A stretch of DNA of 64,000 nucleotides from positions 96,001-160,000 of the forward strand of contig CAWDPO010000003.1 of assembly GCA_963804165.1 (NCBI GenBank), written 5' to 3'. The notes under the pieces are model-generated. The model was not told the DNA's origin. It was given only the letters and a program-made list of their open reading frames with translations, and ran no database searches. The DNA comes from an uncultured delta proteobacterium (GTDB lineage Bacteria; Desulfobacterota; Binatia; UBA9968). This document shows positions 37,510 through 58,867 of this stretch, piece after piece; within the stretch, counting starts at the first letter, position 1, and each line of letters begins with the position of its first letter. The translations under genes were made by a program, and so were the position numbers.

Positions 37510-37560
37510 ATCGCCGATTCGTGCTGCGGAATAGCGGAATAATGGACGGAGGTAGGAAGG

Positions 37561-39024: not shown

Positions 39025-39113
39025 CGGCTCGGGGTCTATTGGGACAGATCGGTCCGCTGAAAGCGGAGTGGACTTTTGCTTGCGCGGTAACGCCGATGTT
39101 GAGGGGAGTAAGA

Positions 39114-41510: not shown

Positions 41511-41536
41511 TTGCAATCGCGTAAGATTACATTCGA

Positions 41537-43390
41537 ATGGCTCAAGCCGTTGCCCGCGCTGCCGAATACGAATATATCGTCGTAGGTTCAGGCGCGGGCG
41601 GCGGCACGCTTGCCGCGCGGCTGGCCGAGAGCGGTTGTTCCGTCTTGCTGCTCGAGGCCGGCGGCGATCCTCTGCAGACGAGCGGCGAGAGGCTACCCGA
41701 AGACTACCAAGTTCCGGCCTTCCACGCCTTCGCGTCGGAAAATCCCGCGTTGAGGTGGGATTTTTTCGTGCGCCATTACACGGACGAGGGCAGACAAAAA
41801 AGCGATTACAAGTACACGCCGGAACGAGGCGGCGTGCTTTATCCCAGAGCGGGCGCGCTCGGCGGCTGCACCGCGCACAACGCGATGATCCTGATTTACC
41901 CGAACAACATGGACTGGGACTACATCGCGGAGCTCACGGGCGACGAGTCGTGGCGCGGGGCCAAAATGCGCCGCTATTTTGAGCGTCTCGAAAATTGCCG
42001 CCATCGGCCAATCTATCGATGGCTGCGAAAGCTCACCGGCATCAACCTTACGCGGCACGGCTTTGACGGTTGGTTGTCGACCGAGCGGACCCGTCCGCCG
42101 CGAGAAGCGCTCCGCGATCGCGATATGATGAACGTGATCGAACGCTCGGCATTCGGCGCCATGGCGGCGCTGGAACATCCACTCCGGCGGCTCCTCTGGT
42201 TCTTTCGCGCCAAGGGCGATCCCAACGACTGGCGGCTCGTGCGGCGCAACGCGTTCGGCATCCGCTACGTGCCCCTGACGACCGCAGCTCACGCGCGCAT
42301 GGGTAGCCGGGAACGGCTGTTGGAAGTTGCGCGCGCATGTCCCCACAAATTACACATCGAACTCGACGCGCTGGCGAGCCGAGTTATCTTTGATGGTCAT
42401 CGCGCCGTCGGCGTCGAGTATCTCAAGGGCGGAAATCTCTATCGCGCACACGCCCAACCGAGCGAAAGTGCGGGTGAGCTACGCGAAGCGCGAGCGTCCA
42501 GGGAAGTGATCCTTTGCGGTGGCGCGTTCAACACGCCGCAATTGCTGATGCTTTCGGGTATCGGTCCCAAGAGCGAGCTCGCGCGACACGGCATCGAAGC
42601 ACGCATCGATTTGCCGGGGGTTGGCACGAATCTCCAGGATCGCTACGAAGTGAGCGTCGTCAACCGCATGAAAGATGACTGGGAGTTTATGGCAGGCGCG
42701 GAGTTCGAAAAAGGCGATAGGCAATTCGATCAATGGGCGAGCTCTCGCCAGGGCGTCTACGCGACCAACGGCGGCATGTTCGCCGTCGTAAAAAAGTCTC
42801 AAAAGGATCGTCCCGTGCCCGATCTGTTTTTGCTAAGCTTGCTGACGCGGTTCGAAGGCTACTTTCCGGGCTACTCAAATCTGATTTCCGGCCACCGCGA
42901 TTACCTTAGCTGGATAGTTTTGAAGGCGCACACGCGCAACGTCGCCGGCACGGTGCGCCTGAAATCCGCCGATCCGCGCGATCCGCCGGAGATCAATTTC
43001 CGCTACTTCGAAGAAGGAAGCGATCGGGAAGATGACGATCTAAACGCGGTGGTCGACGGCATCAAATTCATACGCGCCATCAGCGCGGACCTCAAAAATG
43101 AAAAATTGATCGTCAAGGAAGAACTGCCGGGAGATCTTTTTCAAACCGACGAACAGTTGAAAAACTTCGTGCGCGATAACGCGTGGGGGCATCACGCGTC
43201 GTGCTCCTGTCCGATCGGTCCTAAAGAAAAGGGGGGAGTCTTGGGCGGCGATTTTCGCGTCCACGGAACACAAGGGTTGCGAGTCGTCGACGCGTCGGTG
43301 TTCCCGCGGATTCCAGGTTACTTCATCGTCAGCGCGGTTTACATGATCGGTGAAAAAGCCGCGGACGTGATCCTCGCCGATGCCAGGTAA
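41537..43390 (+). CDS. GMC family flavin oxidoreductase
   Basis: IVVGSGAGG, LLLEAG, LGGCTAHNAM, EVILCGGAFNTPQLLMLSGIG, VGTNLQDR, WGHHASC, LRVVDASVFP. Confidence 0.92.
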   Translation: MAQAVARAAEYEYIVVGSGAGGGTLAARLAESGCSVLLLEAGGDPLQTSGERLPEDYQVPAFHAFASENPALRWDFFVRHYTDEGRQKSDYKYTPERGGVLYPRAGALGGCTAHNAMILIYPNNMDWDYIAELTGDESWRGAKMRRYFERLENCRHRPIYRWLRKLTGINLTRHGFDGWLSTERTRPPREALRDRDMMNVIERSAFGAMAALEHPLRRLLWFFRAKGDPNDWRLVRRNAFGIRYVPLTTAAHARMGSRERLLEVARACPHKLHIELDALASRVIFDGHRAVGVEYLKGGNLYRAHAQPSESAGELREARASREVILCGGAFNTPQLLMLSGIGPKSELARHGIEARIDLPGVGTNLQDRYEVSVVNRMKDDWEFMAGAEFEKGDRQFDQWASSRQGVYATNGGMFAVVKKSQKDRPVPDLFLLSLLTRFEGYFPGYSNLISGHRDYLSWIVLKAHTRNVAGTVRLKSADPRDPPEINFRYFEEGSDREDDDLNAVVDGIKFIRAISADLKNEKLIVKEELPGDLFQTDEQLKNFVRDNAWGHHASCSCPIGPKEKGGVLGGDFRVHGTQGLRVVDASVFPRIPGYFIVSAVYMIGEKAADVILADAR

Positions 43391-43424: not shown

Positions 43425-46238
43425 CTACTTTGTGGATCTACCAGCCTTGAATGTCGGGTCGCTTTCGGCGCCCGGGCGTGGTTGCCATTGCAGCGAATAG
43501 TATTCGCCCCGGTCGCGCGCCCAGGGATCGAAAACGTTGACCACAGAATCAAGCTCGGCGCGCAGCTCCGGCATGGTTCGTAAGAGCACTCGCTTCAACG
43601 GCGACACTTCGATTTCGTGACCATTGGATTTCACTTTCTCCATGACCTTACCGTTGGGACCGTTGTCGTTGACCCACTTCACGCCAAAATCGGTATAAAA
43701 CGCCGGCCGAAAGCTCGAGGTTAGGAAACGGTCGCTAAACAGCCGTCGGGAAGCGTTGAGAATGAAAACCTGAAATTGCGTTTCCGAGATAGCAAAACCA
43801 TGGGGCCGCACGAACTCGGCGAGCCAACCGACGACCGCGTCCACATCTTCGATATTATCGACGATGCTGCCATCGGGCCGGCCCAGACAATCGTTGATCG
43901 CCTTGCCGTCGTCGTTTTTCTGCGACGTGGTAATTATCTTTGCGGCGTCGCACCGATGTTGCCCGTAGATCTCCCGCAGCAGCGCGACAACTCTCTGTTC
44001 CTCGACGCGCTCGGGTGAATTTAACGGCAGCCGCGAGTCGACGAAGTCGTCGAAACCGGTTAGTTGTTTGAGGCCGTATTGGCGGCGATATTCGTTGTAG
44101 CGCGGGATGCCGCGCTCCCGGTCACGAATGATATCCAAAGCCAAGACGTCGACTTTGCCCGTCGTGGTTTTTAGGCGCGGTAAACTTAGATTCTGCAAAA
44201 ACAGCGGATGGTTTTGCAACGACAGCTTACCGGCGCGCTGGCGTCCCATGGACAGCGCCCAATTGGCGATCCCGTGGCGGCGCATCGCCTGGGTCGCCTT
44301 GCCGAATACGGTGTTGACGACCGGAACTTTCCCCCTGATTGAGTTCGGATCGCCGTCCAGCTCGCGCAACTCGATCAAATCCGGAACCATCGGATGCAGC
44401 CGATAGGCGTTGACAAATTCCTCGGGGAAACTAAATGGCACACCGAAATGATTGACGCCGCCAGCGATGTCAGGCCTATCGCTGCCGAGAGCGAAAATCC
44501 CCGGGCCGGCGGCAAACGCCGAATACCAGTCGGTCGATCGTTTGCCGTGTGCCGATGCGGCAAATCGTTGAATCACTTTTGCCAGGGCGGCGCTGACGAG
44601 CGGATGATTTTGCAAAAGGCCGGACCAGTTGGCGTTCATCGCTAGATAAAGCGGCTCGTTGTACAGCAGCTGCGTTGTCCACTCGATCGTGTGAATCTTG
44701 GCGATCTCGGCGGAGACCACAAGGCGCGCGATTCCAAACAATTCATCAGAGCGGATGTCTTTGTATTTGATCGCCCGGTCGGGTGCATCGGGGTTTCGTA
44801 AACCGGAGTCCGATTCCGGATCGAAAGCGGCTTTGCGGCGAAATGCGTCGACAAAGAGATTATGCTCGCGGGCAAAGACATTATGAAAAAAACTCAAGCC
44901 GATGTTCCAATTATCCGGAAACGCCACGGTTTCTTGACCGGCCCATTGGGGGTTATGCGGATCAGACTTTCGCAAAACCGGCAGGTAGCCAGGTTGTTTC
45001 GGCGTGTCGGCGCCATTCGCTTCGAGCAGAAGCTTTGCCGGGTCGCGAGGATCGCGTTTGACGCGGCGGCGCGAAGTCTCGTCATACCCGTATACCTGCG
45101 AGGCGTCCCACCAGGCGGTAACTTTATTCAGCGTCGTTTTGGGAGCGCGGGATAAGTGCCGCTTACTACCGATTGTGAATGTCGGGGCGGGCGCATCCCC
45201 GCCGGTAAGACTTCGATCAATTCGATCCTCCGGCCGGCAGCCGACCTGTTTAGTGTCGTTTGCGCTCGACGCTCTTGTGCCGCCGTCGAGAAGTTGCGCG
45301 CCGCATCCCGTTGCGATCATCACTGCGTCGTTCTGTCCTTCCTGGAGATGGGAAAACCAGTCATGAGTCATGAATTGAATCCAAAAGGCGGCCAAGACGT
45401 TTAAATGCGTCGCCTTCTGGTAGTCGCAGTTGGTTTGTTGGGTTGAACCGTCCGTTACGCCTATACCGTCATTGCAGTTCGCTGAGGGCGACTGTGCGCG
45501 CGTGAAGAGTTTTCGACTGATCACCTGGGGATCAGGCCGCAACAAGCCGAGACGATCGCCGTGGCGGTTTTTTACGATTTCGTCCTCGCCCAGCTCCGGG
45601 AAAGTCGCTTCGAATTCGGTGTTGCGGCTGAAGGGTTGATCCACCGAGCCCATGAGAGGATTGACGATATCGTTACAGATGCCGGTCAGCGTGCGGAAAC
45701 GGATGAATTCGCCGGCGCACTTTTGCGCGCCTTCGCCGCCGACGGCGGCGAAATCTGGATGGTCCTTCGGGAGTCGCAGTTGCGGCCAGCTCTTTTGAAG
45801 ATCGCCTGCGGCGGTCTCTTGGCTCCGGACATAGTTCTCGTAGGTACCGCTGTTGTCGAAAAGATTGAACTTGAGCAGCTCGATGCGCTGGTATTCGATA
45901 TCGAGCAGCGCGCCGTTGATGCCGCGCCGGTTGGGGCTAAGAAAGCCGAACTTAGCAGTTAAGCCAACAGCCCGGCTGGGATCGGCGCCTGCCGCCCAAT
46001 ATCGCGGCCAGTCGAGCCACGGCGTTTCGCGCCAAGAAACCGCGGCTTCACCGCCGCGACAGCGGGCTGTGTCTTCGGAAACCTTTCCTAGAAATCGACC
46101 CGAATGATCCGCGGCGACAACGCGGAAACCGCCGAACGCATAGGCGATGCAGCTGCCGATTCGCGAATGGCGGAGGATCGGATAGGCGCCTAGCAGAACC
46201 GTGATGCTCGCTAAAAGATAGAGTGCAATTTTCTTCAT
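43425..46238 (-). CDS. Heme peroxidase-cyclooxygenase superfamily protein, fatty-acid alpha-dioxygenase-like
   Basis: WIQFMTHDW (distal His), WWDASQVYG, REHN, AKIHTIEWT, EEFVNAYRLHP (catalytic Tyr and proximal His), DRERGIPRYNEYRR, SRRLFSDRF; N-terminal signal/anchor. Confidence 0.85.
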   Translation of the reverse strand: MKKIALYLLASITVLLGAYPILRHSRIGSCIAYAFGGFRVVAADHSGRFLGKVSEDTARCRGGEAAVSWRETPWLDWPRYWAAGADPSRAVGLTAKFGFLSPNRRGINGALLDIEYQRIELLKFNLFDNSGTYENYVRSQETAAGDLQKSWPQLRLPKDHPDFAAVGGEGAQKCAGEFIRFRTLTGICNDIVNPLMGSVDQPFSRNTEFEATFPELGEDEIVKNRHGDRLGLLRPDPQVISRKLFTRAQSPSANCNDGIGVTDGSTQQTNCDYQKATHLNVLAAFWIQFMTHDWFSHLQEGQNDAVMIATGCGAQLLDGGTRASSANDTKQVGCRPEDRIDRSLTGGDAPAPTFTIGSKRHLSRAPKTTLNKVTAWWDASQVYGYDETSRRRVKRDPRDPAKLLLEANGADTPKQPGYLPVLRKSDPHNPQWAGQETVAFPDNWNIGLSFFHNVFAREHNLFVDAFRRKAAFDPESDSGLRNPDAPDRAIKYKDIRSDELFGIARLVVSAEIAKIHTIEWTTQLLYNEPLYLAMNANWSGLLQNHPLVSAALAKVIQRFAASAHGKRSTDWYSAFAAGPGIFALGSDRPDIAGGVNHFGVPFSFPEEFVNAYRLHPMVPDLIELRELDGDPNSIRGKVPVVNTVFGKATQAMRRHGIANWALSMGRQRAGKLSLQNHPLFLQNLSLPRLKTTTGKVDVLALDIIRDRERGIPRYNEYRRQYGLKQLTGFDDFVDSRLPLNSPERVEEQRVVALLREIYGQHRCDAAKIITTSQKNDDGKAINDCLGRPDGSIVDNIEDVDAVVGWLAEFVRPHGFAISETQFQVFILNASRRLFSDRFLTSSFRPAFYTDFGVKWVNDNGPNGKVMEKVKSNGHEIEVSPLKRVLLRTMPELRAELDSVVNVFDPWARDRGEYYSLQWQPRPGAESDPTFKAGRSTK

Positions 46239-46489
46239 GAATGTTCTACGAAGAGGCCCCATCCCGTCGAAGTACGGTCGTTACGCGACGACTTTCGTCT
46301 CGAATTGACGATGCAGTATGCGGGGAAAAGTAGCAATTAGTCAATTTGACTGTAGACAATGCGCACTCTGACTCAGCGATCTTGGAAAATCGCGCGATCT
46401 CGAATTGCCCTTCAGAGCCAAACTCTGTATAGCTCAACTGATCAATTCAGCGATCAGCTCTGTAACGACGAAATCATTACTCTTCACAG

Positions 46490-47469: not shown

Positions 47470-49809
47470 GTGATGTCTGACTATTCCGTCGTCGGGCAAT
47501 CGGTCTATCGAACCGACGCCAATCCGAAAGTCACGGGGCGGGCGCTCCATGTCGGCAACATCGAGATGCCGAGCATGCTGCATGTCGCGGTTTTACGCAG
47601 CCCGTATGCGCATGCGCGCATTACGCACATTGAGAAATCCAAGGCTGAAGCGCTGGACGGCGTCGCGGTTGTGCTGACCGGCGCGGAGATCGCGAAGATG
47701 CCGGGAATAGATCCACACTTCGGGCCGGCGTTTCGCGATCAGCCGATTCTCGCCGTGGAAAGAGCTTGCTATATCGGCGACCCGGTGGTGGCCGTCGCGG
47801 CTATCGATCGGCGCACCGCCGAAGACGCACTTCAGCTTATCGAAATCGATTACGAGCCGTTGCCGGGCGTGCATGACGTACTGGAAGCAGCAAATCCGGG
47901 ATCGCCGCTTGTGCATGAACAGCACCGGCCGGCTAAGGCGTTCGCCGATCTCGCGCATGTCAAAGCCGGTCAGCAATCGAACATATGCTATCACTTCAAA
48001 CTCCGCACCGGCGACGTCGACAAGGCCTTTGGCGAAGCGGACCGGATTTTCGAGGATACCTTCAGCTCGCCACCGGCGCAGCACATGCCGATGGAGCCGC
48101 ACGTAACATTAGCTTACGTCGACGAGCATGAGCGCTTGAACATCTGGACGGCGAGCCAATCGCCGTCTTACGTTCGCACGGAAATTTCCACCACCTTCGG
48201 TATTCCCATGAATCGCATTCGTGTACGCGTACCGTACATCGGCGGCGGTTACGGCGCCAAGCTCTACGCCAAGCTCGAACCGCTGGTGACGGTACTGGCG
48301 CTGATCACAAAAAAGCCGGTGCGTTACGCGCTCACGCGCGAAGAAGAATTTCTGACGATCACCAAGCATAAAGTCGTTACGAAAATCAAAACCGCGATCA
48401 AAGACGGCGCGATCACGGCGCGCAAGTGCGAAGTCTACTGGGACACCGGAGCCTACGCCGAAATCGGTCCGCGCATCGGACACAAATCCGGCTACACGTC
48501 AGCCGGGCCCTATCGGATTCCCAATGTGTGGATCGATTCCTATTGCGTGTACACAAACAAAGTCCCGGCGGGCGCCTTCCGCGGTTTCGGCGTGCCGCAA
48601 GTTATTTGGGCTTATGATTCGCAAACCGATTTAATCGCCCGCGCGCTCGGCGTGGACCCGGTGGAGTTTCGTCTTAAGCCGGCGCTGGACGAGGGCGAAC
48701 GCTTCGCTACCGGTACGGTCGTGCGATCTTTCGGAATCAAAGAGGCGATCCGACAGGCCGCGCGGGCGATCGAGTGGAACAAGGCGATGCCGGTGCAAAC
48801 TGGAACAAAGCGTCGCGGCAAAGGCATCGGCGCAGGCGTAAAAGCGGTACTCACGCCGTCTATTTCCGGCGCTATTGTGATACTCAATGCCGACGGCTCG
48901 GCGAACGTGTTGAGCAGCACCGTCGAAATGGGGCAGGGATCGGAGACGACGATGGGACAGATCGTCGCCGAGGAATTGGGCATCGCGCCCGATCGCGTGC
49001 ACATCGTTCAGCCCGACACCGATGTCACGCCTTATGACACGATAACTGCGGGAAGCCGTTCGACCTACCATATGGGAAACGCGGTGCGCATGGCCGCGGG
49101 GAAGATCAAAACGGAGCTATGCGAAGTCGTGGCATCGAAACTCGAAGTCGATCCCGATGATTTGCTACTGCGCAACAGCCGGGTGGTCGTGCGCGGCAAT
49201 GAAGAGCGCGGCATGGCGATCGGCGAAATATTTCTCGCCAAGTTCGGCAGTCTCGGAACAACCCTTGCCGCGGAAGCCGTTTGCCAACCGACGGCGGCGC
49301 ACATGGACCCGGAAACCGGTCAGTCGGAAAAATGCACGGAGTATTGGTTTCCTTCTGCCACCAGCGCGGAAGTCGAGGTCGACACCGAAACAGGGCGGGT
49401 AAAAGTTCTCCAGCTCTTCAGCGTCGGCGACACCGGCACGGCGATCAATCCGCGCCACTGCGAACAGCAACTGCAGGGCGCTGCGATTATGCATCTCGGT
49501 CTCACGATGTTCGAGGAAATGATCTTCGACGAGGGTCAGCTCACCAACGGATCGCTGCTCGACTACCAGGTCGCGTCGATCAAAGACATGCCGGAGTCGA
49601 TACAGTCAATCGTCGTCGAAGTACCGCACGAAGACGGGCCGTTCGGCGCAAAAGGAGTGGGCGAGACGGGCGCCCTAACAGTCGCCCCGGCGATCGCCAA
49701 CGCGATTCACGAAGCCGTCGGCGTGCGCATCCGCGATCTGCCGATCACACCGGAAAAAGTGTTGCGGGCGTTGGTAGAGCGAGAAGAAAATGCGAATGTA
49801 GGCCGTTGA
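47470..49809 (+). CDS. Xanthine dehydrogenase family molybdopterin-binding subunit (orphan)
   Basis: KVTGRA, LRSPYAHA, PMEPH, IGGGYGAK, GAFRGFGVPQ, EMGQG, AGSRST, GAKGVGE. Confidence 0.92.
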   Translation: MMSDYSVVGQSVYRTDANPKVTGRALHVGNIEMPSMLHVAVLRSPYAHARITHIEKSKAEALDGVAVVLTGAEIAKMPGIDPHFGPAFRDQPILAVERACYIGDPVVAVAAIDRRTAEDALQLIEIDYEPLPGVHDVLEAANPGSPLVHEQHRPAKAFADLAHVKAGQQSNICYHFKLRTGDVDKAFGEADRIFEDTFSSPPAQHMPMEPHVTLAYVDEHERLNIWTASQSPSYVRTEISTTFGIPMNRIRVRVPYIGGGYGAKLYAKLEPLVTVLALITKKPVRYALTREEEFLTITKHKVVTKIKTAIKDGAITARKCEVYWDTGAYAEIGPRIGHKSGYTSAGPYRIPNVWIDSYCVYTNKVPAGAFRGFGVPQVIWAYDSQTDLIARALGVDPVEFRLKPALDEGERFATGTVVRSFGIKEAIRQAARAIEWNKAMPVQTGTKRRGKGIGAGVKAVLTPSISGAIVILNADGSANVLSSTVEMGQGSETTMGQIVAEELGIAPDRVHIVQPDTDVTPYDTITAGSRSTYHMGNAVRMAAGKIKTELCEVVASKLEVDPDDLLLRNSRVVVRGNEERGMAIGEIFLAKFGSLGTTLAAEAVCQPTAAHMDPETGQSEKCTEYWFPSATSAEVEVDTETGRVKVLQLFSVGDTGTAINPRHCEQQLQGAAIMHLGLTMFEEMIFDEGQLTNGSLLDYQVASIKDMPESIQSIVVEVPHEDGPFGAKGVGETGALTVAPAIANAIHEAVGVRIRDLPITPEKVLRALVEREENANVGR

Positions 49810-50405: not shown

Positions 50406-51386
50406 TTAGATCGCCGCCGGCGAATCGAGTTCGAAGCCGAGGTCCGCAATCATTTGATGCGCATCGGAGGCTTCTTGTCCCGGCGTAGTTAAGTAGCCGT
50501 TCACGAAGATCGAATTTGCCGGGTAGAGGCTCATCGGTTGGAGCGAACGCAGATTCACTTCTCTGCCGCCGGCGACGCGGATCTCCTTATTCGGATTCAC
50601 GAAGCGAAAGAGACAGAGCGTTTTTAGACACCGTTGCGGCGTAAGTTCTCGCTTGCTTTCGAAAGGCGTCGTCGGAATTGAATTCAAAAAGTTCACCGGG
50701 ATCGAGTCGATGTCCATGGCGCGGAGCGTCAACGCGAGATCGATGATGTCCTCGTCGCTTTCGCCCATGCCGATGATGCCGCCGGAGCAGGTGCCGATGC
50801 CGGCGTGTTTGACGTTCTCGATGGTCGCGACGCGGTCGTCATAGGTGTGCGTCGTGACGATTTCCGGGTGGTGAGCGCGGCTGGTATTCAAATTATGATT
50901 CACTCGGCCGACTCCGGCAGCTTTAAGTTTCTCGGTCTTGTCTTGGTTCATGAGACCGAGCGAGCAGCAAACGTTCATGCCGGTTTCTTTGCGGATCTCG
51001 CGTACGGCGTCGGCGATTTCGTCGATCTCTTTGTTCGTCGGGCCGCGGCCGCTGTTGACGATGCAGTATCGCACTGCGCCTGCGGCCTTTGCCGCTTTCG
51101 CGCCCTCAATGAGTTTTTCCTTGGACATGAACGGATAGCGGTCAATCGGCGCTTCGGAAACGGAGGATTGGGAGCAATAGTGACAGTCTTCCGGACAGAG
51201 GCCGCTTTTGGCGTTCTGCAGGACGTGGATTTGCACGCGCTTACCGTAGTAGTGGCGGCGCACTTTGAATGCTGCGCTCACCAACTCCGGCAGCTCGTCG
51301 TCCGTCGCGTCCAATACTGCTCTTAATTCATCTCGTTCAGGAATAATGCCTTGAAGCGCTTTGTTGGCCAACTGGTAAAAATCCAT
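50406..51386 (-). CDS. bioB: Biotin synthase
   Basis: SGLCPEDCHYCSQS radical SAM motif, CCSLG, NHNLNTS, CSGGIIGMGE, SIPVNFL, IRVAGGRE, ANSIF..YLTT. Confidence 0.95.
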   Translation of the reverse strand: MDFYQLANKALQGIIPERDELRAVLDATDDELPELVSAAFKVRRHYYGKRVQIHVLQNAKSGLCPEDCHYCSQSSVSEAPIDRYPFMSKEKLIEGAKAAKAAGAVRYCIVNSGRGPTNKEIDEIADAVREIRKETGMNVCCSLGLMNQDKTEKLKAAGVGRVNHNLNTSRAHHPEIVTTHTYDDRVATIENVKHAGIGTCSGGIIGMGESDEDIIDLALTLRAMDIDSIPVNFLNSIPTTPFESKRELTPQRCLKTLCLFRFVNPNKEIRVAGGREVNLRSLQPMSLYPANSIFVNGYLTTPGQEASDAHQMIADLGFELDSPAAI

Positions 51387-51411
51387 TCCATCCTCCGAAG
51401 TCAGACCGGTT

Positions 51412-51879
51412 TTAGCATGCGCTGTCCGGCCTTGCAAATAACGCTTCGCGCGCGTGGAAATTTCCCCACGTGTACAAGAACGCGGCCAACACGAAATGGA
51501 AAAAGATTGGTATCGTGCCGCCGTACCAGCGCATCTCGGGGCGCAAGATCATAGTTATAACGTAGCGCAGCACCATGGTGGTGGCGTAAATCGCGCTGAA
51601 GCCGACGAGAAAACGCGCAAAGCGGAGTCGTTTCTGCGCAAAAAACCCTTTGCCCCGCCACACGTCGGAGACGACCTCAACCATAACGATTAACATGACC
51701 ACCTGAATCGCCAGCAGAATGGGATACGGAACCAGACCTGATGCCCACTGTTCAGCAGAAGGTAACCAGCGAACCGAAAAAAATACGACAAGACCTTGGC
51801 CCAGGACGCGAAAAAAGAATAACAGAGTGAGAAACGCGAGAACGGGCCCGTATGCGCTCGACTTCAATCTCGCTTTCAC
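51412..51879 (-). CDS. Hypothetical integral membrane protein (about 4 TM)
   Basis: Four hydrophobic segments; GTGA overlap with the GH3 stop codon. Confidence 0.75.
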   Translation of the reverse strand: MKARLKSSAYGPVLAFLTLLFFFRVLGQGLVVFFSVRWLPSAEQWASGLVPYPILLAIQVVMLIVMVEVVSDVWRGKGFFAQKRLRFARFLVGFSAIYATTMVLRYVITMILRPEMRWYGGTIPIFFHFVLAAFLYTWGNFHAREALFARPDSAC

Positions 51880-53549
51880 GAGAGCAATTTGCCGGCCGTC
51901 TTCACGACAAATTCGATTTCGCTCGTCTCCTCCGGAGTAGCGCTCAGAAGCCGGGCTTTGAATTGCGCGTCGCGTGTCCCGGAGCGGAGAGCGTCATTGG
52001 CGCTGCGCTGGAACCAGCCCGGTTTCATCACGCACAACAGCGGCGCGCCGAGCCGCCGAGACTCACGTTTCTGCGCATACTCGATATTGAGCTCGCACAG
52101 GGACGCGTCCAGTTCCCCCAGCAATTGAACGAGCCGCTCTTGAGTTGCCATGACACCGTCCAATTCCACGAAGAACACATAAAGAGATTTTTCTACATCG
52201 GCACAGGCGCGATAGTGTTGAACCGCCATTGCCGCGGCGTTTTGCGCCTGTGCCATCGCCTGGATCACCTGGTTGACGTGAAGTTTTTCGCCGGTGATGT
52301 TGGTGACGTCGCGACCTTTGCGGACAAATTCGATCAGCGGCGTCTGGTTGTAATAGCCGGCGACGCGAACGACGTCGTTAATGTCGTAGCGGTAAAGGCC
52401 GGCGGGCGTGGTGAGAACCAGATAGTAGTTCGATCCTGCTTCGAGCTCAGTGCAGGTAAGGATCGTGGGCACCGGGCTGTCAACGTCCGATTCGGGAATG
52501 AACTCATAGAAATTTTCATCGATCGCAAGAATCCCGGCCGAGCCTGAGTCGGAAATGGGCAGGGTCATCTGCGCTTCGCTCGCCATGTAACCGAGATCGC
52601 GTGCCGGTGTTGTCTGGCCAAACCAGCGGGCAAATTCCTTGAGACGGAGGCCAACGGTGCCACCTTTCCAACAACCGATGAGTTGCAATCGCGGCCAATA
52701 CTCTTTGGGGCGGAGGGTCCCGTCGTTCTTAATTAAAGATTCTAGTCTCCTAGCGCGCGCCGGGTTTTTCCCAAGTCGGCTTCCGAGCACCGCTCGTACT
52801 TTGGGCGGCAGATTACAACGCTGGGCGATGGTGCCATCGCGAATGTCTTTGATGATTTCGTCCTTATGCCGGTCGGCGCTTTCAACGAGCTTCAGTATTG
52901 TGCTCGGGTTGGGTGTGCCCAAAAACGTGATGTTGTGTTCCAGCGCCAAGCGCATCGTAAGATAGTATTTCGATTCGAAGTCGTTGACTTCAGCAATTTC
53001 GTAGGGCACCGCGTAAGCATTTTTGATCCAGCTTGGACTGCTCTGATAGATCAATCCGGAAGCCGCGCCGAAAGCGACGTTGCCCGCGGTGTGGCCCTCG
53101 ATGGCGGGACTCACGACACCGAGCAGCTTGCCGCTAAACAGATCGGGATGGTCCACGAGAGCGCGGTAATACCAAAATCTGGTGAGTTGACGATGATTCC
53201 GGCGCGTGGTCTCTGTGACGGGGATCAGTTTGGGCTGACCGGTGCTGCCGCTGGTCATCGTGAACATCAATGCCGGCTCCGCGGTCAAGACGTTCGACTC
53301 GCCATTTTGCGCACGCTCGACGTAAGAGCGCAGGTGCTCGTAGTCGCCGATGTCAACCTGTTTGCGGTATTCGCTGAGAGAATGAATCGTGTCGAAATGA
53401 TGATCGCGACCGAAGCGCGCGCCGCGATTTCGACTTACAATATCGAGAAGCAAGCGATTCTGAATTCGTTCTGGATTCGTCGTGAGGCTCTCCCAGCGTG
53501 TCCACTGGCGGCGTGTAAGGAACGTAGCGGTTTTGAGAAGGATACCCAT
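51876..53549 (-). CDS. GH3 family acyl-acid amido synthetase
   Basis: Adenylation motifs TSGSTGQPKLIP, GYMASE, GLYRYDINDV; FYEFIP; TGEKL. Confidence 0.9.
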   Translation of the reverse strand: MGILLKTATFLTRRQWTRWESLTTNPERIQNRLLLDIVSRNRGARFGRDHHFDTIHSLSEYRKQVDIGDYEHLRSYVERAQNGESNVLTAEPALMFTMTSGSTGQPKLIPVTETTRRNHRQLTRFWYYRALVDHPDLFSGKLLGVVSPAIEGHTAGNVAFGAASGLIYQSSPSWIKNAYAVPYEIAEVNDFESKYYLTMRLALEHNITFLGTPNPSTILKLVESADRHKDEIIKDIRDGTIAQRCNLPPKVRAVLGSRLGKNPARARRLESLIKNDGTLRPKEYWPRLQLIGCWKGGTVGLRLKEFARWFGQTTPARDLGYMASEAQMTLPISDSGSAGILAIDENFYEFIPESDVDSPVPTILTCTELEAGSNYYLVLTTPAGLYRYDINDVVRVAGYYNQTPLIEFVRKGRDVTNITGEKLHVNQVIQAMAQAQNAAAMAVQHYRACADVEKSLYVFFVELDGVMATQERLVQLLGELDASLCELNIEYAQKRESRRLGAPLLCVMKPGWFQRSANDALRSGTRDAQFKARLLSATPEETSEIEFVVKTAGKLLS

Positions 53550-53555
53550 TTCACT

Positions 53556-55427
53556 CTATCGGCGCACTTCGTGCTTGGTGATTGCGAGGCGTTCCAAAAC
53601 GTCTTCACTGACCGTAACGCTGAGGCCGCGTGTTTTGAGGAGAGGCGCGCGCCCGGCGAAACCGAAAGCGACGTTTTCGAACGTGACATCCTCGGCGAGG
53701 AGCCAGGTGCCGAAGGAGCCTTCGGCGAATTCGAGCGCCGGCAAATGTGCCGCAAAGGTTCGGCCTGCGGCCGAAAGAATGCCGGTTTCGCCCACTTGCG
53801 CGCCGACTTGGATCTTGATGCCCGCGTCATGCGTGAGCTTGGCGATGGCCAAGCTGCCGGAGATGCCGGCGTTTTTCGACAAGCGAATGTTGAAGTAATC
53901 ACAGGCGCCACGCTCGATGAGGCGGCGCGCCTGTTCGAGCGTGACGAGGGATTCGTCGGCCATGACGGCGAGTCCACTTTCGGAACGCACGTGTTTCATT
54001 CCTTCGAGATCGTCGGCCGGCACCGGCTGCTCGATCACTGATAATTTAAATTGCCCGAGTCGCCTTAGTTGTTCCACGGCTTCATCGGCATTCCAAGCGC
54101 CGTTGGCATCCGCGCGCAATTCAACCTGGTCACCGACGGCTTTACGCACGGCCTCGAGGCGCGCCGCGTCGTTGGACGTGCCGACTTTCACCTTGATCTG
54201 ACGCAATCCCAAGCGCGCCATACGTTTGGCCAGAGCGGCGGCGTCTTTCGGTTCATCGGCGGAGATCACACCGCTATAGACGACTTCGAAACGCGCGGGG
54301 GCAAGCAGATCCGCCAGCGCGCAATGGCCGCCGCGCAGGCTCCAATCGAGAAGCGCCAATTCCACCGCGCAAAATGCCGCATTCCAAGCGGTGACAGCGG
54401 TTTCTCCGTAGCCGCTGCGCGTCCAGTCCGGCATCAGCGCTTGCAGGTGTTCAAGAGCTTCCCATCCAGGAATAAAGGTTTCACCAAAAATGTTTGGTGT
54501 CAGATGATCGCGAATGCGCGCAACCATGGTTTCCGTCGTTTCTCCACTGACATAGGAACGAGGCAAGCTCTCGCCGAAACCGCTGCGTCCGTCGTCGCCG
54601 GTGACTTTGATGATCACCGTGTCGCTCTCTTCGCGGCTCTGCAGCGCGTGGCGAAAAGTCTGTTTAAACGGGATACCTAACTGGTAGATGGTTACGGACT
54701 CGATGTGCCGCGCCTTTGCCGCAGTTGATTTCATTCGAGTACGTTGTTTCGAGCTGGGCGGAAAATAATGACGCACGAAGAGGTTGTCGTCGAGAGTTAA
54801 ACGCGCGATCCGGTCGAATAGTGTGTCTGAGATTTGGTGAAAGTCCGAATAGTCCTGGATCACCGTCACGCCTTCCTCGGCGTGGCGGACATCGACCTCG
54901 GAATGAAGCGCAAACCAGTGCAGTGCCGGTTTGGGGATTGCGTAGCGGTTCGTCAAGGCTTCGGCGATTTCGCTCGAACAGCGCGACAGCATGAACTCGA
55001 AGCTCATGGTTTCGAGCAGGACGGACAGGCAAAGCTCACGCAGGGTCGCCACCGGCACGCGGGTGGCGCAGAAGATCGCGACGCGTTTGCGCGCGTCGGC
55101 GACCAGATCGTCGATTTCACTGTCAGTAAAACCCACGCCGCGGGCCAATTCCAAAAGCAGCGCCGAGTGCGGCTTCTCGTGCTCCGAGCAGCCCATTTCT
55201 TCCATGAGGTTCTCTTTTAATGACTCTGCGCCGCTCGACGGCAGAGAAGCGAAACACAGCGCGACGATATGCGACGACAGAAAGTGGGTGCGAAAAACGT
55301 TGCGGAGAAACTCGAGCGCGGCGTCGCGCGTAGCATATCCCGATACTAGGTCGCGGTACTCGGGAGATTCCTTGAACTCGCGAGTAGCGCTTTCAAAGAA
55401 TTCGATTATCGTCTTCGCGGCGACCAT
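53556..55427 (-). CDS. Fusion: heme-oxygenase-like diiron (CADD/PqqC-like) domain plus enolase-superfamily (MLE subgroup) epimerase-like domain
   Basis: N-domain NLMEEMG..EKPH, ETMSFE, WFALHSEVDVRH; C-domain GFGESLPR, VELALLD, IKVKVG, RADANG, IEQP, MADES, NIRLSK, GAQVGE. Start at ATG 55427 after GAGGTG. Confidence 0.85.
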   Translation of the reverse strand: MVAAKTIIEFFESATREFKESPEYRDLVSGYATRDAALEFLRNVFRTHFLSSHIVALCFASLPSSGAESLKENLMEEMGCSEHEKPHSALLLELARGVGFTDSEIDDLVADARKRVAIFCATRVPVATLRELCLSVLLETMSFEFMLSRCSSEIAEALTNRYAIPKPALHWFALHSEVDVRHAEEGVTVIQDYSDFHQISDTLFDRIARLTLDDNLFVRHYFPPSSKQRTRMKSTAAKARHIESVTIYQLGIPFKQTFRHALQSREESDTVIIKVTGDDGRSGFGESLPRSYVSGETTETMVARIRDHLTPNIFGETFIPGWEALEHLQALMPDWTRSGYGETAVTAWNAAFCAVELALLDWSLRGGHCALADLLAPARFEVVYSGVISADEPKDAAALAKRMARLGLRQIKVKVGTSNDAARLEAVRKAVGDQVELRADANGAWNADEAVEQLRRLGQFKLSVIEQPVPADDLEGMKHVRSESGLAVMADESLVTLEQARRLIERGACDYFNIRLSKNAGISGSLAIAKLTHDAGIKIQVGAQVGETGILSAAGRTFAAHLPALEFAEGSFGTWLLAEDVTFENVAFGFAGRAPLLKTRGLSVTVSEDVLERLAITKHEVRR

Positions 55428-55474
55428 GATCACCTCATTCAACAAACGGCGAAGCGGTGCGTTTAACCAGTCGG

Positions 55475-58400
55475 TCAGCTTCGCTCCAGAGCCAGCGCTT
55501 TTACTTTTTTGAGGTCCGCTTTGCCTGATCCGAGCACAGGAATGGCATCGATGGGATGGAGATTCTCGCGTTTCGGGACCCAGAGCTTGGGCAACTCGGA
55601 CTGATTGAGCTTGCTCCATAACTCGTCGCGCGTGACACCGTTGTGCGCGTAGAAGGCGACAAGCTTCTCGCCGCGTTGCTCGTCTGGAATCGCGGTGACG
55701 ACGGAGGCCACGTGACCCAGTACTTCGTTGATCACTTCCTCGACTTTCATATGTGGCACCATCTCGCCGCCGATTTTACTGAAGCGCGAGACCCGATCGG
55801 TGATGCGAATGAACCCGTCTTCGTCGATCGCCCCAACATCGCCGGTAACATACCAGCCGCGACGCATCGCTTGTTCGGTTAGATTAGGTTGGTTGAGATA
55901 ACCGAGCATGACGTTGGGACCTTTGATCAGCAATAACCCTTCTTCGCCGGGACCGAGAGGTTGCTCGGTATCCGGATCAATGATCTTCGCCGCGACGCCG
56001 GGGATCGGGTGGCCGACAGTGCCGGGTTTGTGGCTGATCTGGTTTTCCTTGCCATCGACGACGTCCGGGGTATTAACCGCGACCACCGGCGCCAGCTCCG
56101 TGCAGCCGTAACCTTCGAGGATCGTCAAGCCAAATTTCTCTTGAAAGCCTTTGGCAATCTGTTCGCGCAATTTTTCAGCGCCGGCGATGATGTAGCGCAG
56201 GCTGGCAAATTCCTCCTTGCTGCAGCGGCGCCAGTAGCTGACATAGAAAGTCGGCGTGCTGATCAAAAGCGTGGCTTGGTATTTTTGGACAGTCTCGCCG
56301 ATGGTTTTGGCGTCGGTGGGATTGGGATGGTAAACCGCGCCGAACCTTTCGAGCACCGGCAGCCACAGCGTTGCAGTGAAACCGAAGGAATGAAACAGCG
56401 GCAGCACTCCCATGATACGATCGGTCGGTGTAAACCGGATGACTTGGGCGATCCCTTCGACGTTCGACAAGATGTTATGATGCGACAGCATGACGCCCTT
56501 GGGTGTGCCGGTACTGCCGCTGGAAAAAATCACCGTCGCGAGATCATTGGGCCGCTGTTGCTTGAGATAGCGGCGGTTCAACCAGCCTGCCGGTGTAGGA
56601 AAAGTTCTGACCGCCGTCGCGGCCTTGCGCAAGCCGGTGAAGGTTTCCCGAATATCTTCGACGAAAACCATTCCTTCCATCTCGCCTATGTTCGCCTTCG
56701 ATAAAAATGCCTGGGACGTGACGATGGTTTCTATCCCGCACTGCGCGACCGCCGCGCTCATCGTCTCCGCCCCTGAAGTGAAATTTAGGTTTACGGGCAC
56801 TTTCCCAGCTAATAAGATTGAAATATTCACCAGCGATCCGCCCACCGACGGCGGTAGAATAACGCCTACCATCGTCTGATTGACGCAATGGTTTCTGACC
56901 CAGCGTGCGAACAGCAAAGCGCCGATCAATGTTTTTCCGTAGGTCAACTCCACGCCTGTAGTGTCGGCCATACAGAAGGAAAACCAATTGCGCTTTGCTA
57001 TTCTAATGAATTTGGCGTGAAGGAGATCGGCAGTGCTTTCGCGGCAGTCGAACGCGTTGCTCTCGAGTTCGAGGACGGCATTGCGAACTTGATGGACGCT
57101 GGCAGTGGACGGCAGCGGTGACCCAAAAGAGACCGTGACGGGATAGGAGAACTTTTTCGGCCACTTCCAGAAAAAACGCCCATCCGCAAAGCTGAAGATA
57201 CTGCCCCAGAGTTGGTCGATGTGAACCGGTATGATCGGTATATTTGTGCCTTCGACGATCTTCTCGAAGCCGCGTTTGAATGGCAGCAAATGGCCCACGC
57301 GGCTAATCGCGCCTTCCGCGAAGATGCAGACCATGTGGCCGTTGTCCAATTCGTTGCGTGCGCGTTTGAGCGACTGGACGATATCGCGCCGGTTGGTCGC
57401 CGATACCGGTATGGAGCGCATCAGTCGGAAAAACCAATTGAGCCACTTGAGGTCGTAATAGTCGCGGTGCAGCATAAAGCGCACGAAGCGGGGCGTGCCG
57501 CCGCCGATCATGAGCGCGTCGACGAAAGAAACGTGATTCGAAACGAGTAATGCCGGACCGTGCGCTGGCAGGTTTTCGGCGCCAACGATTTTGATCCGAT
57601 AGATCGTGTGAGTGAAGAGCCACAGAATGAAGCGGACGAAATAATCGGGCAGGAAATAAAGAATCACTCCCGTGCCGGCCAAGGTGACAAGTCCGGTTAG
57701 AAGAATGATCGAATCGGGAGAAAATGCGAGCGGCGCTTTGAGAATCCAGTGAATGCCAGCGGCAAGAAAAATTCCGATGGTATTCATAAAATTGTTGGTT
57801 GCGATCAGTTGGCCCTTCTCCTCTTTACCGCTGCGCTGCTGCAGTAACGCGTTCAGCGGCACGGCGAACAGTCCGGCGGAGAATCCGAGCAGCGTCAGCG
57901 AAGCGCATGTGTAAGGATAGGACGGAGCGGAAAGTGCCACCAAACCGAGGCAAACACCCATTGCTACCGACCCCAGTGGCACCAAGCCCAGCTCGATATG
58001 ATCGCCCGAGAGCCGGCCCGCAGCGAGGCTCCCCGCGCCGATGCCGATCGCCAAAAACGTTCCAAGCAGGCCGATGTGGAACTCATCCAATTGCAAAAGC
58101 TCTTTGCCAAAAAATAGGAGATTGATCTGAACGAGGGCGCCGAGAAACCAAAAGTAGGAAATCCCGATCACCGTTAGCCAGAGCACTCTCTCGGCGCGCA
58201 AGCGGCCGAGGCCTTCGAAGACTTCGCGCAGCGGATTGAGCCGCAGAAGTTTTGCGGCGCCTGAGGCGGGAACCCGAGTGATGCCGAGACTCGTAAACAT
58301 GCCCAGGCCGGCAATGGCGATCATTAAAATGCCGATCAGAGGCAGCTTGTCTTTCCACACGGCAAAGATCGCGCCTCCTACGGAAGTGCCGAGAATGATC

Positions 58401-58867
58401 GCCATAAAAGTGCTCATCTCGAGCAGGCCATTGCCCCGCGACAGCTCTCTTTCGGGAAGCATCTCCGGCAAAATGCCGTATTTGGCCGGGCTGAAGAAAG
58501 CGGCGTGGAGTCCCATGAGAAAGACTATGGCGAGCATGGACTGAATATGACCGGTGAAGAATGCCGCGAGCGCCAACAGCATGATCCCGATTTCGCATAC
58601 CTTAACCGCGACTAAGATGGTTCTCTTACTGTAGACATCGGCCAGATAACCCGCATAGCCTGAAAACAGCGCTCCCGGCAGTATGAACAGAAAAGCGATC
58701 AGCTCGACGTAACTATCGGCGCCTTGCGTTGCCAAATCCAAGGCGATGAACGACACCACAATCTTCAAAAAGTTGTCGTTAAACGCGCCGAGAAATTGCG
58801 TGCAGAAAAAAGCAAAAAAGCCCGGCTGCCTGAGCGTGTCGGTGTATTTGCCGTCGGTCATTGCCAT
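55475..58867 (-). CDS. aas: Aas-type trifunctional protein: LplT-like MFS plus acyltransferase plus acyl-ACP synthetase
   Basis: TQFLGAFNDN and FFSPAKYGILPE (LplT), NHVSFVD and FAEG (PlsC-type), IFSSGSTGTPKG, EGYGCTE, WYVTGD, GSGKAD. Confidence 0.9.
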   Translation of the reverse strand: MAMTDGKYTDTLRQPGFFAFFCTQFLGAFNDNFLKIVVSFIALDLATQGADSYVELIAFLFILPGALFSGYAGYLADVYSKRTILVAVKVCEIGIMLLALAAFFTGHIQSMLAIVFLMGLHAAFFSPAKYGILPEMLPERELSRGNGLLEMSTFMAIILGTSVGGAIFAVWKDKLPLIGILMIAIAGLGMFTSLGITRVPASGAAKLLRLNPLREVFEGLGRLRAERVLWLTVIGISYFWFLGALVQINLLFFGKELLQLDEFHIGLLGTFLAIGIGAGSLAAGRLSGDHIELGLVPLGSVAMGVCLGLVALSAPSYPYTCASLTLLGFSAGLFAVPLNALLQQRSGKEEKGQLIATNNFMNTIGIFLAAGIHWILKAPLAFSPDSIILLTGLVTLAGTGVILYFLPDYFVRFILWLFTHTIYRIKIVGAENLPAHGPALLVSNHVSFVDALMIGGGTPRFVRFMLHRDYYDLKWLNWFFRLMRSIPVSATNRRDIVQSLKRARNELDNGHMVCIFAEGAISRVGHLLPFKRGFEKIVEGTNIPIIPVHIDQLWGSIFSFADGRFFWKWPKKFSYPVTVSFGSPLPSTASVHQVRNAVLELESNAFDCRESTADLLHAKFIRIAKRNWFSFCMADTTGVELTYGKTLIGALLFARWVRNHCVNQTMVGVILPPSVGGSLVNISILLAGKVPVNLNFTSGAETMSAAVAQCGIETIVTSQAFLSKANIGEMEGMVFVEDIRETFTGLRKAATAVRTFPTPAGWLNRRYLKQQRPNDLATVIFSSGSTGTPKGVMLSHHNILSNVEGIAQVIRFTPTDRIMGVLPLFHSFGFTATLWLPVLERFGAVYHPNPTDAKTIGETVQKYQATLLISTPTFYVSYWRRCSKEEFASLRYIIAGAEKLREQIAKGFQEKFGLTILEGYGCTELAPVVAVNTPDVVDGKENQISHKPGTVGHPIPGVAAKIIDPDTEQPLGPGEEGLLLIKGPNVMLGYLNQPNLTEQAMRRGWYVTGDVGAIDEDGFIRITDRVSRFSKIGGEMVPHMKVEEVINEVLGHVASVVTAIPDEQRGEKLVAFYAHNGVTRDELWSKLNQSELPKLWVPKRENLHPIDAIPVLGSGKADLKKVKALALERS

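Follow-up and report, generated by a model that had tools for sequence, protein, structure and literature searches.

What does a protein do in which a heme-oxygenase-like diiron oxidase (HDO) is joined to a member of the enolase superfamily? The question is raised by an open reading frame (ORF) at positions 53556..55427, minus strand, of a 64,000-nucleotide (nt) stretch of DNA (the window throughout) from an uncultured delta proteobacterium of the Binatia lineage UBA9968 (GenBank assembly GCA_963804165.1, contig CAWDPO010000003.1, positions 96,001 to 160,000 of the forward strand). An earlier note, made from the letters of the window, had singled out this ORF for its domain fusion and for a Lys-to-Arg exchange in the enolase active site. 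The strongest clue to the function of the fusion, absent from that note, is its partnership with a third gene, encoding an acyl-acid amido synthetase of the GH3 family.

A single frame encodes both domains

The fusion gene encodes 623 amino acids (aa) plus a stop codon, and was divided, all on the minus strand, into an HDO domain (residues 1-224; 54756..55427), delimited by an AlphaFold2 model, Foldseek matches and an alignment with CADD; a basic, disordered linker (residues 225-236; 54720..54755) with a low predicted local distance difference test score (pLDDT) and variable sequence in the alignment of homologues; and an enolase-superfamily domain of the muconate lactonizing enzyme (MLE) subgroup (residues 237-623; 53559..54719), assigned from PDB matches and invariant residues. 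Pfam places PF14518 (Haem_oxygenas_2) on residues 39-195 (E 8.5e-16), MR_MLE_N on 250-375 and MR_MLE_C on 396-610 (E 4.5e-49). Translation of the minus strand is uninterrupted over 53556-55619, with the 623-aa version beginning at the ATG at 55427; the plus-strand reading of 53556-55427 was rejected for its many stops, which leaves the gene on the minus strand. The start at 55427 was preferred because the upstream gene has its stop at 55475, a Shine-Dalgarno-like GAGGTG read from the sequence (55431..55436, minus strand) lies 3 nt upstream of the ATG, and homologues share the starting Met (18 of 19 aligned sequences; the nineteenth, P0069, is without the first four residues). A longer ORF from an ATG at 55619 (687 aa) was rejected, as it overlaps the upstream gene, finds no support among the homologues and passes over the Shine-Dalgarno-like site at 55427.

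A search of 5.8 billion proteins, with 8000 candidates scored, gave 678 matches, of which the best 120 clusters were examined. One 623-aa cluster matches the window fusion at 100%. Every one of the best 120 of the 678 matching clusters is 619-640 aa long, carries PF14518 and PF13378 and shares 72-88% identity with the window protein, and they come from many independent assemblies. Uniform length and the presence of both domains throughout exclude a frameshift or chimeric assembly. The earlier description of one uninterrupted 623-aa frame, containing an HDO and an enolase-superfamily domain, is therefore borne out, by translation of the minus strand, homologue lengths and Pfam, and the stop or frameshift between the domains that the note had feared is not there. 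All motifs that it quoted (NLMEEMG, EKPH, ETMSFE and HSEVDVRH; KxK, D, E, D and NIRLSK) are present and invariant in 20 fused homologues. Its word 'unusual' stands only in part: the full-text literature gave no characterised enzyme of such architecture, but with at least 120 clusters at 90% identity, from two lineages (metagenome-assembled genomes, MAGs, of Binatia type, and Dehalococcoidia), the fusion is not rare. Sequencing runs searched with the fusion gave three DNA runs only, holding 5-7% of the sampled words, and no RNA run.

A conserved cassette with GH3

Six nt past the stop of the fusion begins the gene for the GH3-family acyl-acid amido synthetase (557 aa; 51876..53549, minus strand), with all three GH3 domains, N-terminal, central and C-terminal, recognized by Pfam (PF03321 5.5e-69, PF23571 6.2e-23, PF23572 2.4e-16). 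Its stop is overlapped (GTGA) by the GTG start of a 155-aa ORF (51412..51879, minus strand), whose product has four hydrophobic segments and is predicted to be a membrane protein with four transmembrane segments. No Pfam or NCBIfam model matches this protein, and the ESM Atlas gave unnamed 'hypothetical protein' clusters only; its 41 homologues in the fetched loci carry the motifs RVxGQ, LPxxxxWxSG and PExRWxGxxIPIxFH. On the cassette strand of the window no promoter-like site was found, and terminator-like matches were not enriched (14, with a mean of 12.6 in shuffled sequence).

Conservation of this order was followed in two sets of loci. The close set consists of 21 loci from MAGs labelled Candidatus Binatia, 'Deltaproteobacteria' and similar, at 67-86% identity: GH3 lies directly downstream of the fusion in 18, the contigs of the remaining three end within 612 nt, and the 155-aa ORF follows in 16 of the 21. 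Four long-read 'MFD' MAGs (L017, L018, L019, L021) gave only partial, single tblastn segments for the fusion or GH3, which suggests assembly frameshifts rather than true gene breaks. The distant set, collected with a 9-row alignment of stand-alone HDO homologues, consists of 72 loci outside the lineage of the window, from Cyanobacteria (Calothrix PCC 7103 and PCC 7716, Leptolyngbya PCC 6406, Nodosilinea and others, with the split cassette), Dehalococcoidia, Rokubacteria, Acidobacteria (Pyrinomonadaceae), Omnitrophota, Sericytochromatia, Actinomycetota, Nitrospirota (Nitrospira), Myxococcota and Fibrobacterota. An enolase gene adjoins the HDO gene, directly after it, in 70 of these 72 loci, with 38-52% identity to the enolase domain of the window; GH3 is found in 67, immediately downstream in 66, and the 155-aa ORF in 21. 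Twelve Dehalococcoidia loci are also fused (~619 aa).

The window protein is thus a 'Rosetta stone' fusion of two genes that stand side by side, but separately, in most other lineages. On an enolase tree of 85 rows, computed by a quick method with a midpoint root used for drawing only, all 28 fused rows fall into one clade (SH-aLRT 99) that also takes in one split sequence, from Nitrospira, and the fused or split state changes twice, compared with a mean of 23.8 changes in label shuffles; as far as such a tree can tell, the pattern is compatible with one fusion event. A further database protein, P0197, joins part of an HDO to part of a GH3.

GH3 enzymes adenylate a carboxylic acid and then form an amide with an amino acid. 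The only characterised bacterial member, according to the accessible text of PMC12493201, is OlsH, the GH3-like lyso-ornithine-lipid synthetase of Singulisphaera acidiphila, which uses ATP to join a free fatty acid to ornithine, giving N-acyl ornithine, and acts with OlsI. Like OlsH, the cassette enzyme is bacterial and has all three GH3 domains; the OlsH model NF052613 scores it at 130.8 bits (cut-off 620), matching residues 280-518 only. The two-step aminolipid logic of OlsH/OlsI, as far as that text sets it out, is paralleled by an acyltransferase gene often found near the cassette. The partners differ: those of OlsH are the alpha/beta-hydrolase OlsI and the methyltransferase OlsG, whereas those of the cassette GH3 are the HDO and the enolase, and no gene for an OlsI-type alpha/beta-hydrolase adjoins the cassette in the window.

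The HDO domain

Folded alone with AlphaFold2 from a 26-sequence alignment, the HDO domain was predicted as all-helical (pLDDT 94.4, predicted template modelling score (pTM) 0.91). Foldseek against the PDB ranked CADD/CT610 first (8vag, 8va9, 1rcw; E ~1e-5, TM 0.67-0.74, 18% identity), followed by HrmI, PqqC, FlcD, RohS and UndA, the UndA entries being 4wwj, 6p5q and 4wx0, the last with beta-hydroxydodecanoate; behind all of these came the true heme oxygenases and the TenA proteins. This agrees with the earlier assignment of the N-terminal half to the HDOs and makes CADD the closest solved fold. By sequence, the family profile matches FlcD (1.4e-5) and CADD (2.2e-5), and its alignment pairs E77/H87/E144/H175/D179/H182 of the window protein with E81/H88/E142/H174/D178/H181 of Chlamydia CADD, so that the CADD-type ligand set proposed in the note is recovered residue for residue. 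The motif residues (E76/E77, H87, E139/E144 and H175-x3-D179-x2-H182) are invariant in the 20 fused homologues and the six putative ligands also in 20 mostly split HDO sequences. As judged from these alignments, the domain holds a complete putative 3-His/3-carboxylate dimetal site.

CADD is described, in the part of PMC13108848 that was accessible, as a self-sacrificing p-aminobenzoate synthase that consumes its own Tyr27 and Lys152. Lys152 pairs with Ile154 of the window HDO, and Tyr27 with Tyr24, a position occupied in split homologues by F, V, M or W; with the NCBIfam model for CADD, TIGR04305, the fusion scores 26 bits (cut-off 200). Because of Ile154 and the variable position 24, we read the site as CADD-like in its metal ligands, without the sacrificial residues, and the domain should act on a free substrate. 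CADD moreover stands alone, whereas the window HDO is fused to an enolase, or its homologues are encoded beside one, within a GH3 cassette.

In their heme-oxygenase-like helical fold and their dimetal site, UndA, FlcD, HrmI, RohS and SznF resemble the window HDO, of which small-molecule O2 chemistry may be expected by analogy. They differ from it in having 12-17% identity and in that none is known with an enolase-superfamily or GH3 partner or fusion; SznF bears a cupin domain. RohS and SznF, in the accessible parts of the sources that describe them, carry PF14518 as the window HDO does. Within sequence space the HDO family is narrow: 100 clusters at 50% identity match at E <= 1e-3 among 1.84 billion representatives, and most of them are stand-alone proteins of 220-240 aa.

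A second case of such an HDO joined to an enolate-stabilising fold is the 572-aa database protein P0189, in which the HDO domain (PF14518 6.1e-15) stands behind an enoyl-CoA hydratase/crotonase domain (ECH_1 4.8e-21). Its HDO is a more distant member of the family, with 28% identity to that of the window. A scan of genomes for its context gave one weak partial relative on a 2.7-kb contig, and a scan of metagenomes gave none.

The enolase domain and Arg515

The best PDB matches of the enolase domain are the L-Ala-D/L-Glu (dipeptide) epimerases 3jva (2.7e-41) and YkfB (1jpm, 4.4e-40; also 1tkk) and the N-succinyl-Arg/Lys racemase 2p88 (1.2e-38), with which it has in common the KxK motif, the D/E/D metal ligands and the beta6 motif NI-x-L-x-K-x-G-G. 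K412-x-K414, D440, E466 and D491 fall on the canonical positions, the last three being the Mg2+ ligands of beta3, beta4 and beta5 (1jpm ligands E219 and D244, alignment numbering). Arg515 of NIRLSK (codon 53883..53885, minus strand) sits under the Lys of NIKLMK in 3jva, 1jpm and 2p88, and so stands in for the beta6 catalytic Lys of the MLE subgroup; the corresponding residue is number 268 in 1jpm (alignment numbering), and K268 is the second catalytic base of that enzyme. In the 60 cassette enolases compared, which span at least 10 phyla, K412, K414, D440, E466, D491, R515 and K518 are invariant, the lysine pair at the end of beta2 reads K412-V-K414 in 60/60, and R265 and R290 of the capping loops are likewise invariant in 60/60; the family-specific invariants further include E286, E296, E356, D361, E547, T548, R556, E569, S571 and D580. 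The Lys-to-Arg swap of the earlier note is thus confirmed by the PDB alignments and extends to 60 of 60 family members. The note was also right in finding no DxD: this motif, which at beta8 binds the free (N-terminal) ammonium in Ala-Glu epimerases, is replaced by A-E569-G-S571. Arg at the position of the beta6 Lys, the missing DxD and the invariants R265, R290, R556, E547 and E569 set the window enolase apart from YkfB, 3jva and 2p88.

The name 'epimerase' used in the note does not hold. The best NCBIfam match is the muconate cycloisomerase subfamily model TIGR02534, with 142.4 bits against a cut-off of 334.95, and the equivalog models also fall far short: Ala-Glu epimerase (NF041118, 116.7 against 500; NF011708, 85.5 against 343), the N-acetyl-D-glutamate racemase DgcA (111 against 400) and o-succinylbenzoate synthase (OSBS; TIGR01928, 99.4 against 200.65). 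Since all specific models lie far below their cut-offs, the domain is taken to represent a distinct isofunctional family of the MLE subgroup, separate from all of its named families. Homologues are named 'L-Ala-D/L-Glu epimerase', 'muconate cycloisomerase' or 'N-acetyl-D-glutamate racemase' in the source databases, and the first two names are probably wrong for hundreds of these proteins. The genome of the window has eight loci matching MR_MLE_C above cut-off, among which the window copy alone lies in a long (739-aa) frame.

In MLE-subgroup enzymes Mg2+ binds the substrate carboxylate, and the proton alpha to it is abstracted. For OSBS and MLE a single beta2 Lys suffices as base, with the beta6 cation serving mainly to stabilise the enediolate, followed by beta-elimination or addition. 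By analogy they may be regarded as mechanistic models for the window enolase, as a one-base reaction would tolerate Arg at beta6; they differ from it in that it falls under both model cut-offs and is without menaquinone or catechol-pathway context, no men or cat genes being found near the fusion. That the oxidase product undergoes one-base chemistry, as the note proposed from the Arg, may reasonably be expected.

Predicted contact between the two halves

The split enolase and HDO of Calothrix PCC 7103, each entered as an alignment, gave a complex-prediction score of 0.64, whereas the highest-scoring of three controls had 0.00; the runs share at least 83% of their contacts, and the pLDDT of the partner is at least 86. 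Of 80 solved complexes 58 attain the mark applied to this score, as do 2 of the 110 mismatched pairs, a calibration that is only rough here because our own alignments were used. The predicted interface sets HDO residues 118-131 and 202-228 against enolase residues 14, 16-18, 157-166 and 337-354, of which 14 and 16-18 correspond, by alignment, to the 20s lid loop over the active site. The models support a putative physical HDO-enolase complex. Modelled at full length with AlphaFold2, the fusion shows both domains folded (pLDDT 87.8), with residues 225-236 as the sole segment below 50.

Genes around the cassette

Upstream of the fusion, a gene at 55475..58867 (minus strand) encodes an 1130-aa, Aas-like protein composed of MFS (LplT), PlsC and AMP-binding parts, which ends 47 nt upstream of the fusion and scores 1391 bits with NF006386 (cut-off 1221). 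It holds this position in 15 of the 21 close loci; the same architecture recurs two genes downstream of the split cassette in an Omnitrophota MAG (L038), and MFS and PlsC occur as separate genes near the cassette in Rokubacteria (L071). The Aas-like protein is possibly linked to the cassette, outside its core. Other neighbours include an MMPL exporter (L060), a protein with an LPG_synthase_TM region (L061), and ICMT-like membrane carboxyl methyltransferases in eight loci and LCM-like ones in four. The 155-aa ORF occurs in none of the 12 methyltransferase loci, so that the two may be alternative finishing steps. An amidohydrolase gene lies upstream of the cassette in L007, L009 and L013, which together with L005 are mutually close (82-88% identity).

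Downstream of the 155-aa ORF follows the biotin synthase gene bioB (50406..51437, minus strand; TIGR00433, 401 bits). The listed BioB ORF begins at a TTG and shares 26 nt with the 155-aa ORF; the likely true start is an ATG near 51386, which follows GGAGGA. BioB is probably merely a neighbour: biotin chemistry for the cassette was rejected, as only some Binatia-type loci have the order Aas-cassette-BioB, and none of the 72 distant loci has BioB.

A lone HDO, with no enolase or GH3, was seen in a marine 'Deltaproteobacteria' MAG (L083:2762-11930) and similarly in L080. The order in L083 is ICMT-like methyltransferase, MMPL transporter, cytochrome P450, a 236-aa protein of no assigned family, HDO, APH-like kinase and a 597-aa protein likewise unassigned, which makes for another lipid-flavoured context. 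That the 597-aa protein might be a diverged GH3 was rejected (BLASTP E 3.4).

Proposed reaction and its alternatives

As a quite possible account of the cassette we tentatively favour an O2-dependent oxidation combined with a one-base, Mg-dependent elimination on a metabolite of N-acyl amino acid type, probably lipidic and made by GH3. GH3 would adenylate a carboxylic acid, most likely a fatty acid, and couple an amino acid to it, and the HDO domain would use O2 to hydroxylate C-beta of the resulting N-acyl amino acid. The enolase domain would hold the free alpha-carboxylate on Mg2+, Lys414 would take the alpha-proton, and Arg515 would act solely as cationic stabiliser of the enediolate. The beta-substituent would then leave, in a one-base elimination like that of OSBS, to give a dehydro or otherwise modified head group, and the lipidic product would undergo O-acylation, carboxyl methylation or export by the proteins of neighbouring genes. 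What the substrate is, in which order the reactions run and how hydroxylation and elimination proceed are all inferred. HDO and enolase are placed after GH3 because the invariant cationic residues R265 and R290 lie in the 20s/50s specificity loops and because the enolase domain is kin to enzymes of N-acyl amino acids and dipeptides; a lipid is our best reading of the lipid-type neighbours found in independent lineages.

Several observations weigh against this account. The results here fix neither the order relative to GH3 nor the site of oxidation, and the GH3 neighbour is far from OlsH (130.8 bits, with a cut-off of 620). Arg can serve as general base in some enzymes, which leaves a two-base mechanism some probability, and the full-length model, with a pTM of 0.66, does not confidently predict how the domains are arranged within the fusion. 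Not all neighbours are of lipid type: a CocE/NonD hydrolase is found in 13 cyanobacterial loci, four loci (L005, L007, L009 and L013) have a class IV aminotransferase close to the cassette, and in three of them (L007, L009 and L013) a D-glutamate-cyclase-like gene lies upstream of it. Between GH3 and the Aas-like gene of L038 (11503-14000) stand a 436-aa protein of no family and a 391-aa Rid-domain protein, the latter weakly similar to FkbO/Hyg5 chorismatases (40.8 bits against a cut-off of 325). Lastly, Aas and BioB are adjacent in L005 with the cassette elsewhere, and L007, L009 and L013 are without Aas nearby; because L005 has Aas-BioB without the cassette between them, the neighbourhood of both genes in the window may be incidental.

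In the main alternative, HDO and enolase would act before GH3, attacking C3 of a free fatty acid in the manner of UndA and dehydrating or hydrating C2-C3, so that GH3 would ligate the amino acid to a 3-hydroxy or 2-enoyl fatty acid formed without coenzyme A (CoA) or acyl carrier protein (ACP) activation. The gene order HDO-enolase-GH3 in 66 of the 72 distant loci would suit this sequence of events, as would the presence of UndA (4wwj, 6p5q, 4wx0) among the structural relatives of the HDO domain, and free carboxylates are used by all three enzyme families. According to the accessible text of PMC12493201, moreover, OlsH favours non-hydroxylated fatty acids, yet acyloxyacyl aminolipids require a 3-hydroxyl. 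We nevertheless consider it unlikely, as the invariant R265, R290, H260 and Y292 of the 20s/50s loops are less suited to an alkyl chain than to a polar or anionic substrate, and the closest solved enolases work on N-acyl amino acids and dipeptides; P0189, with its fusion of a related HDO and an enoyl-CoA hydratase domain, would be a precedent, but its HDO is only 28% identical to that of the window. Very unlikely, in our judgement, is a pathway of aromatic acids and D-glutamate, with the HDO making or modifying an aryl acid of p-aminobenzoate type, GH3 adding glutamate, and an enolase like Ala-Glu epimerase or DgcA acting on the N-aroyl-glutamate. Plant PBS3, a GH3, joins benzoates to glutamate; CADD, the closest solved fold, could be cited here with its profile match of 2.2e-5 and the weak TIGR04305 match of 26 bits, as could the matches of the enolase domain to the Ala-Glu epimerase (117 bits) and N-acetyl-D-Glu racemase (111 bits) models, the class IV aminotransferase of four Binatia-type loci with the D-glutamate-cyclase-like gene in three of them, and the distant chorismatase-like protein of L038. 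The sacrificial Lys152 of CADD is, however, Ile154 here and the position of Tyr27 varies in split homologues; the aminotransferase loci are close kin; and neighbours of lipid type are more frequent and occur in more lineages.

That the enolase domain is what the databases call it, a classical two-base racemase or epimerase or a muconate cycloisomerase, with the HDO as an unrelated passenger, appears highly improbable. Apart from the source names of homologues (epimerase, cycloisomerase or racemase) it has in its favour that TIGR02534 is the best NCBIfam match with 142 bits, but this and the other specific models are far below cut-off (142/335, 117/500, 111/400 and 99/201), all 60 sequences have Arg in place of the beta6 Lys that two-base racemisation requires, DxD is missing, and the tight conservation of the HDO partner and the predicted interface oppose a passenger role. 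The replacement of the canonical second base, and the predicted docking of the HDO on the enolase lid loop, might equally be expected if the enolase domain were catalytically dead and served as scaffold or substrate-binding module for the HDO. Across at least 10 phyla, however, the domain keeps unchanged all three metal ligands, the two lysines of beta2 and ~20 other residues of barrel and cap, which on sequence grounds is the pattern of a working enolase active site and leaves a dead domain with very little probability.

Other genes of the window

Several genes farther from the cassette were also noted. Positions 43425-46262 (minus strand) encode a protein of 945 aa that carries an animal haem peroxidase domain (PF03098, 2.8e-68), and its gene stands beside the same EamA and molybdenum-hydroxylase genes in the related MAGs L015 and L019. 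The plus strand carries, at 35986-43390, tandem paralogues of RoxA-like (rubber-oxygenase-like) dihaem cytochromes c (35986-37509 and 37561-39024); next come an 829-aa protein that matches cytochrome c only weakly and a GMC oxidoreductase. A molybdenum hydroxylase large subunit of the xanthine dehydrogenase / 4-hydroxybenzoyl-CoA reductase type lies at 47470-49809 (plus strand); all equivalog models score it under cut-off, and no adjoining genes for small or medium subunits were seen in the ORF list.

Novelty and significance

The full-text literature, searched without supplementary files, gave no paper on the fusion or the cassette. In the accessible part of a 2026 review of HDOs the words 'enolase', 'fusion' and 'fused' occur 0 times, and the accessible parts of recent HDO papers nowhere mention an enolase or a fusion. 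As far as checked, the fusion, the Arg-variant enolase family, the CADD-like non-sacrificial HDO family and the fixed partnership with GH3 are undescribed; the parts themselves belong to known superfamilies. A more far-reaching reading, which we regard as rather doubtful when taken as a whole, would make the HDO-enolase pair, fused here and predicted as a complex elsewhere, a new two-site catalyst that directly links the O2-dependent oxidation of C-H bonds with carbanion chemistry of the enolase type, the substrate being an N-acyl amino acid lipid. The cassette would then lead, independently of CoA and ACP, to membrane aminolipids or lipid signals of a new class in at least 10 phyla, culturable cyanobacteria among them, and would contain the first enolase family with an obligatory beta6 Arg and the first HDO family acting on GH3 products.

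HDOs, the enolase superfamily and the bacterial GH3 enzymes are each studied for the way in which old scaffolds acquire new chemistry, and here they are locked in one cassette, two members of which are welded into one polypeptide in two lineages. The family offers an HDO subfamily near CADD without its sacrificial residues, and a natural Lys-to-Arg experiment in an enolase active site. Since the split cassette occurs in the culturable Calothrix PCC 7103 and PCC 7716, Leptolyngbya PCC 6406 and Nodosilinea, genetics and lipidomics are feasible, and the cassette thereby provides a testable lead to a metabolite, perhaps a bacterial aminolipid or acyl-amino-acid signal of a new kind.

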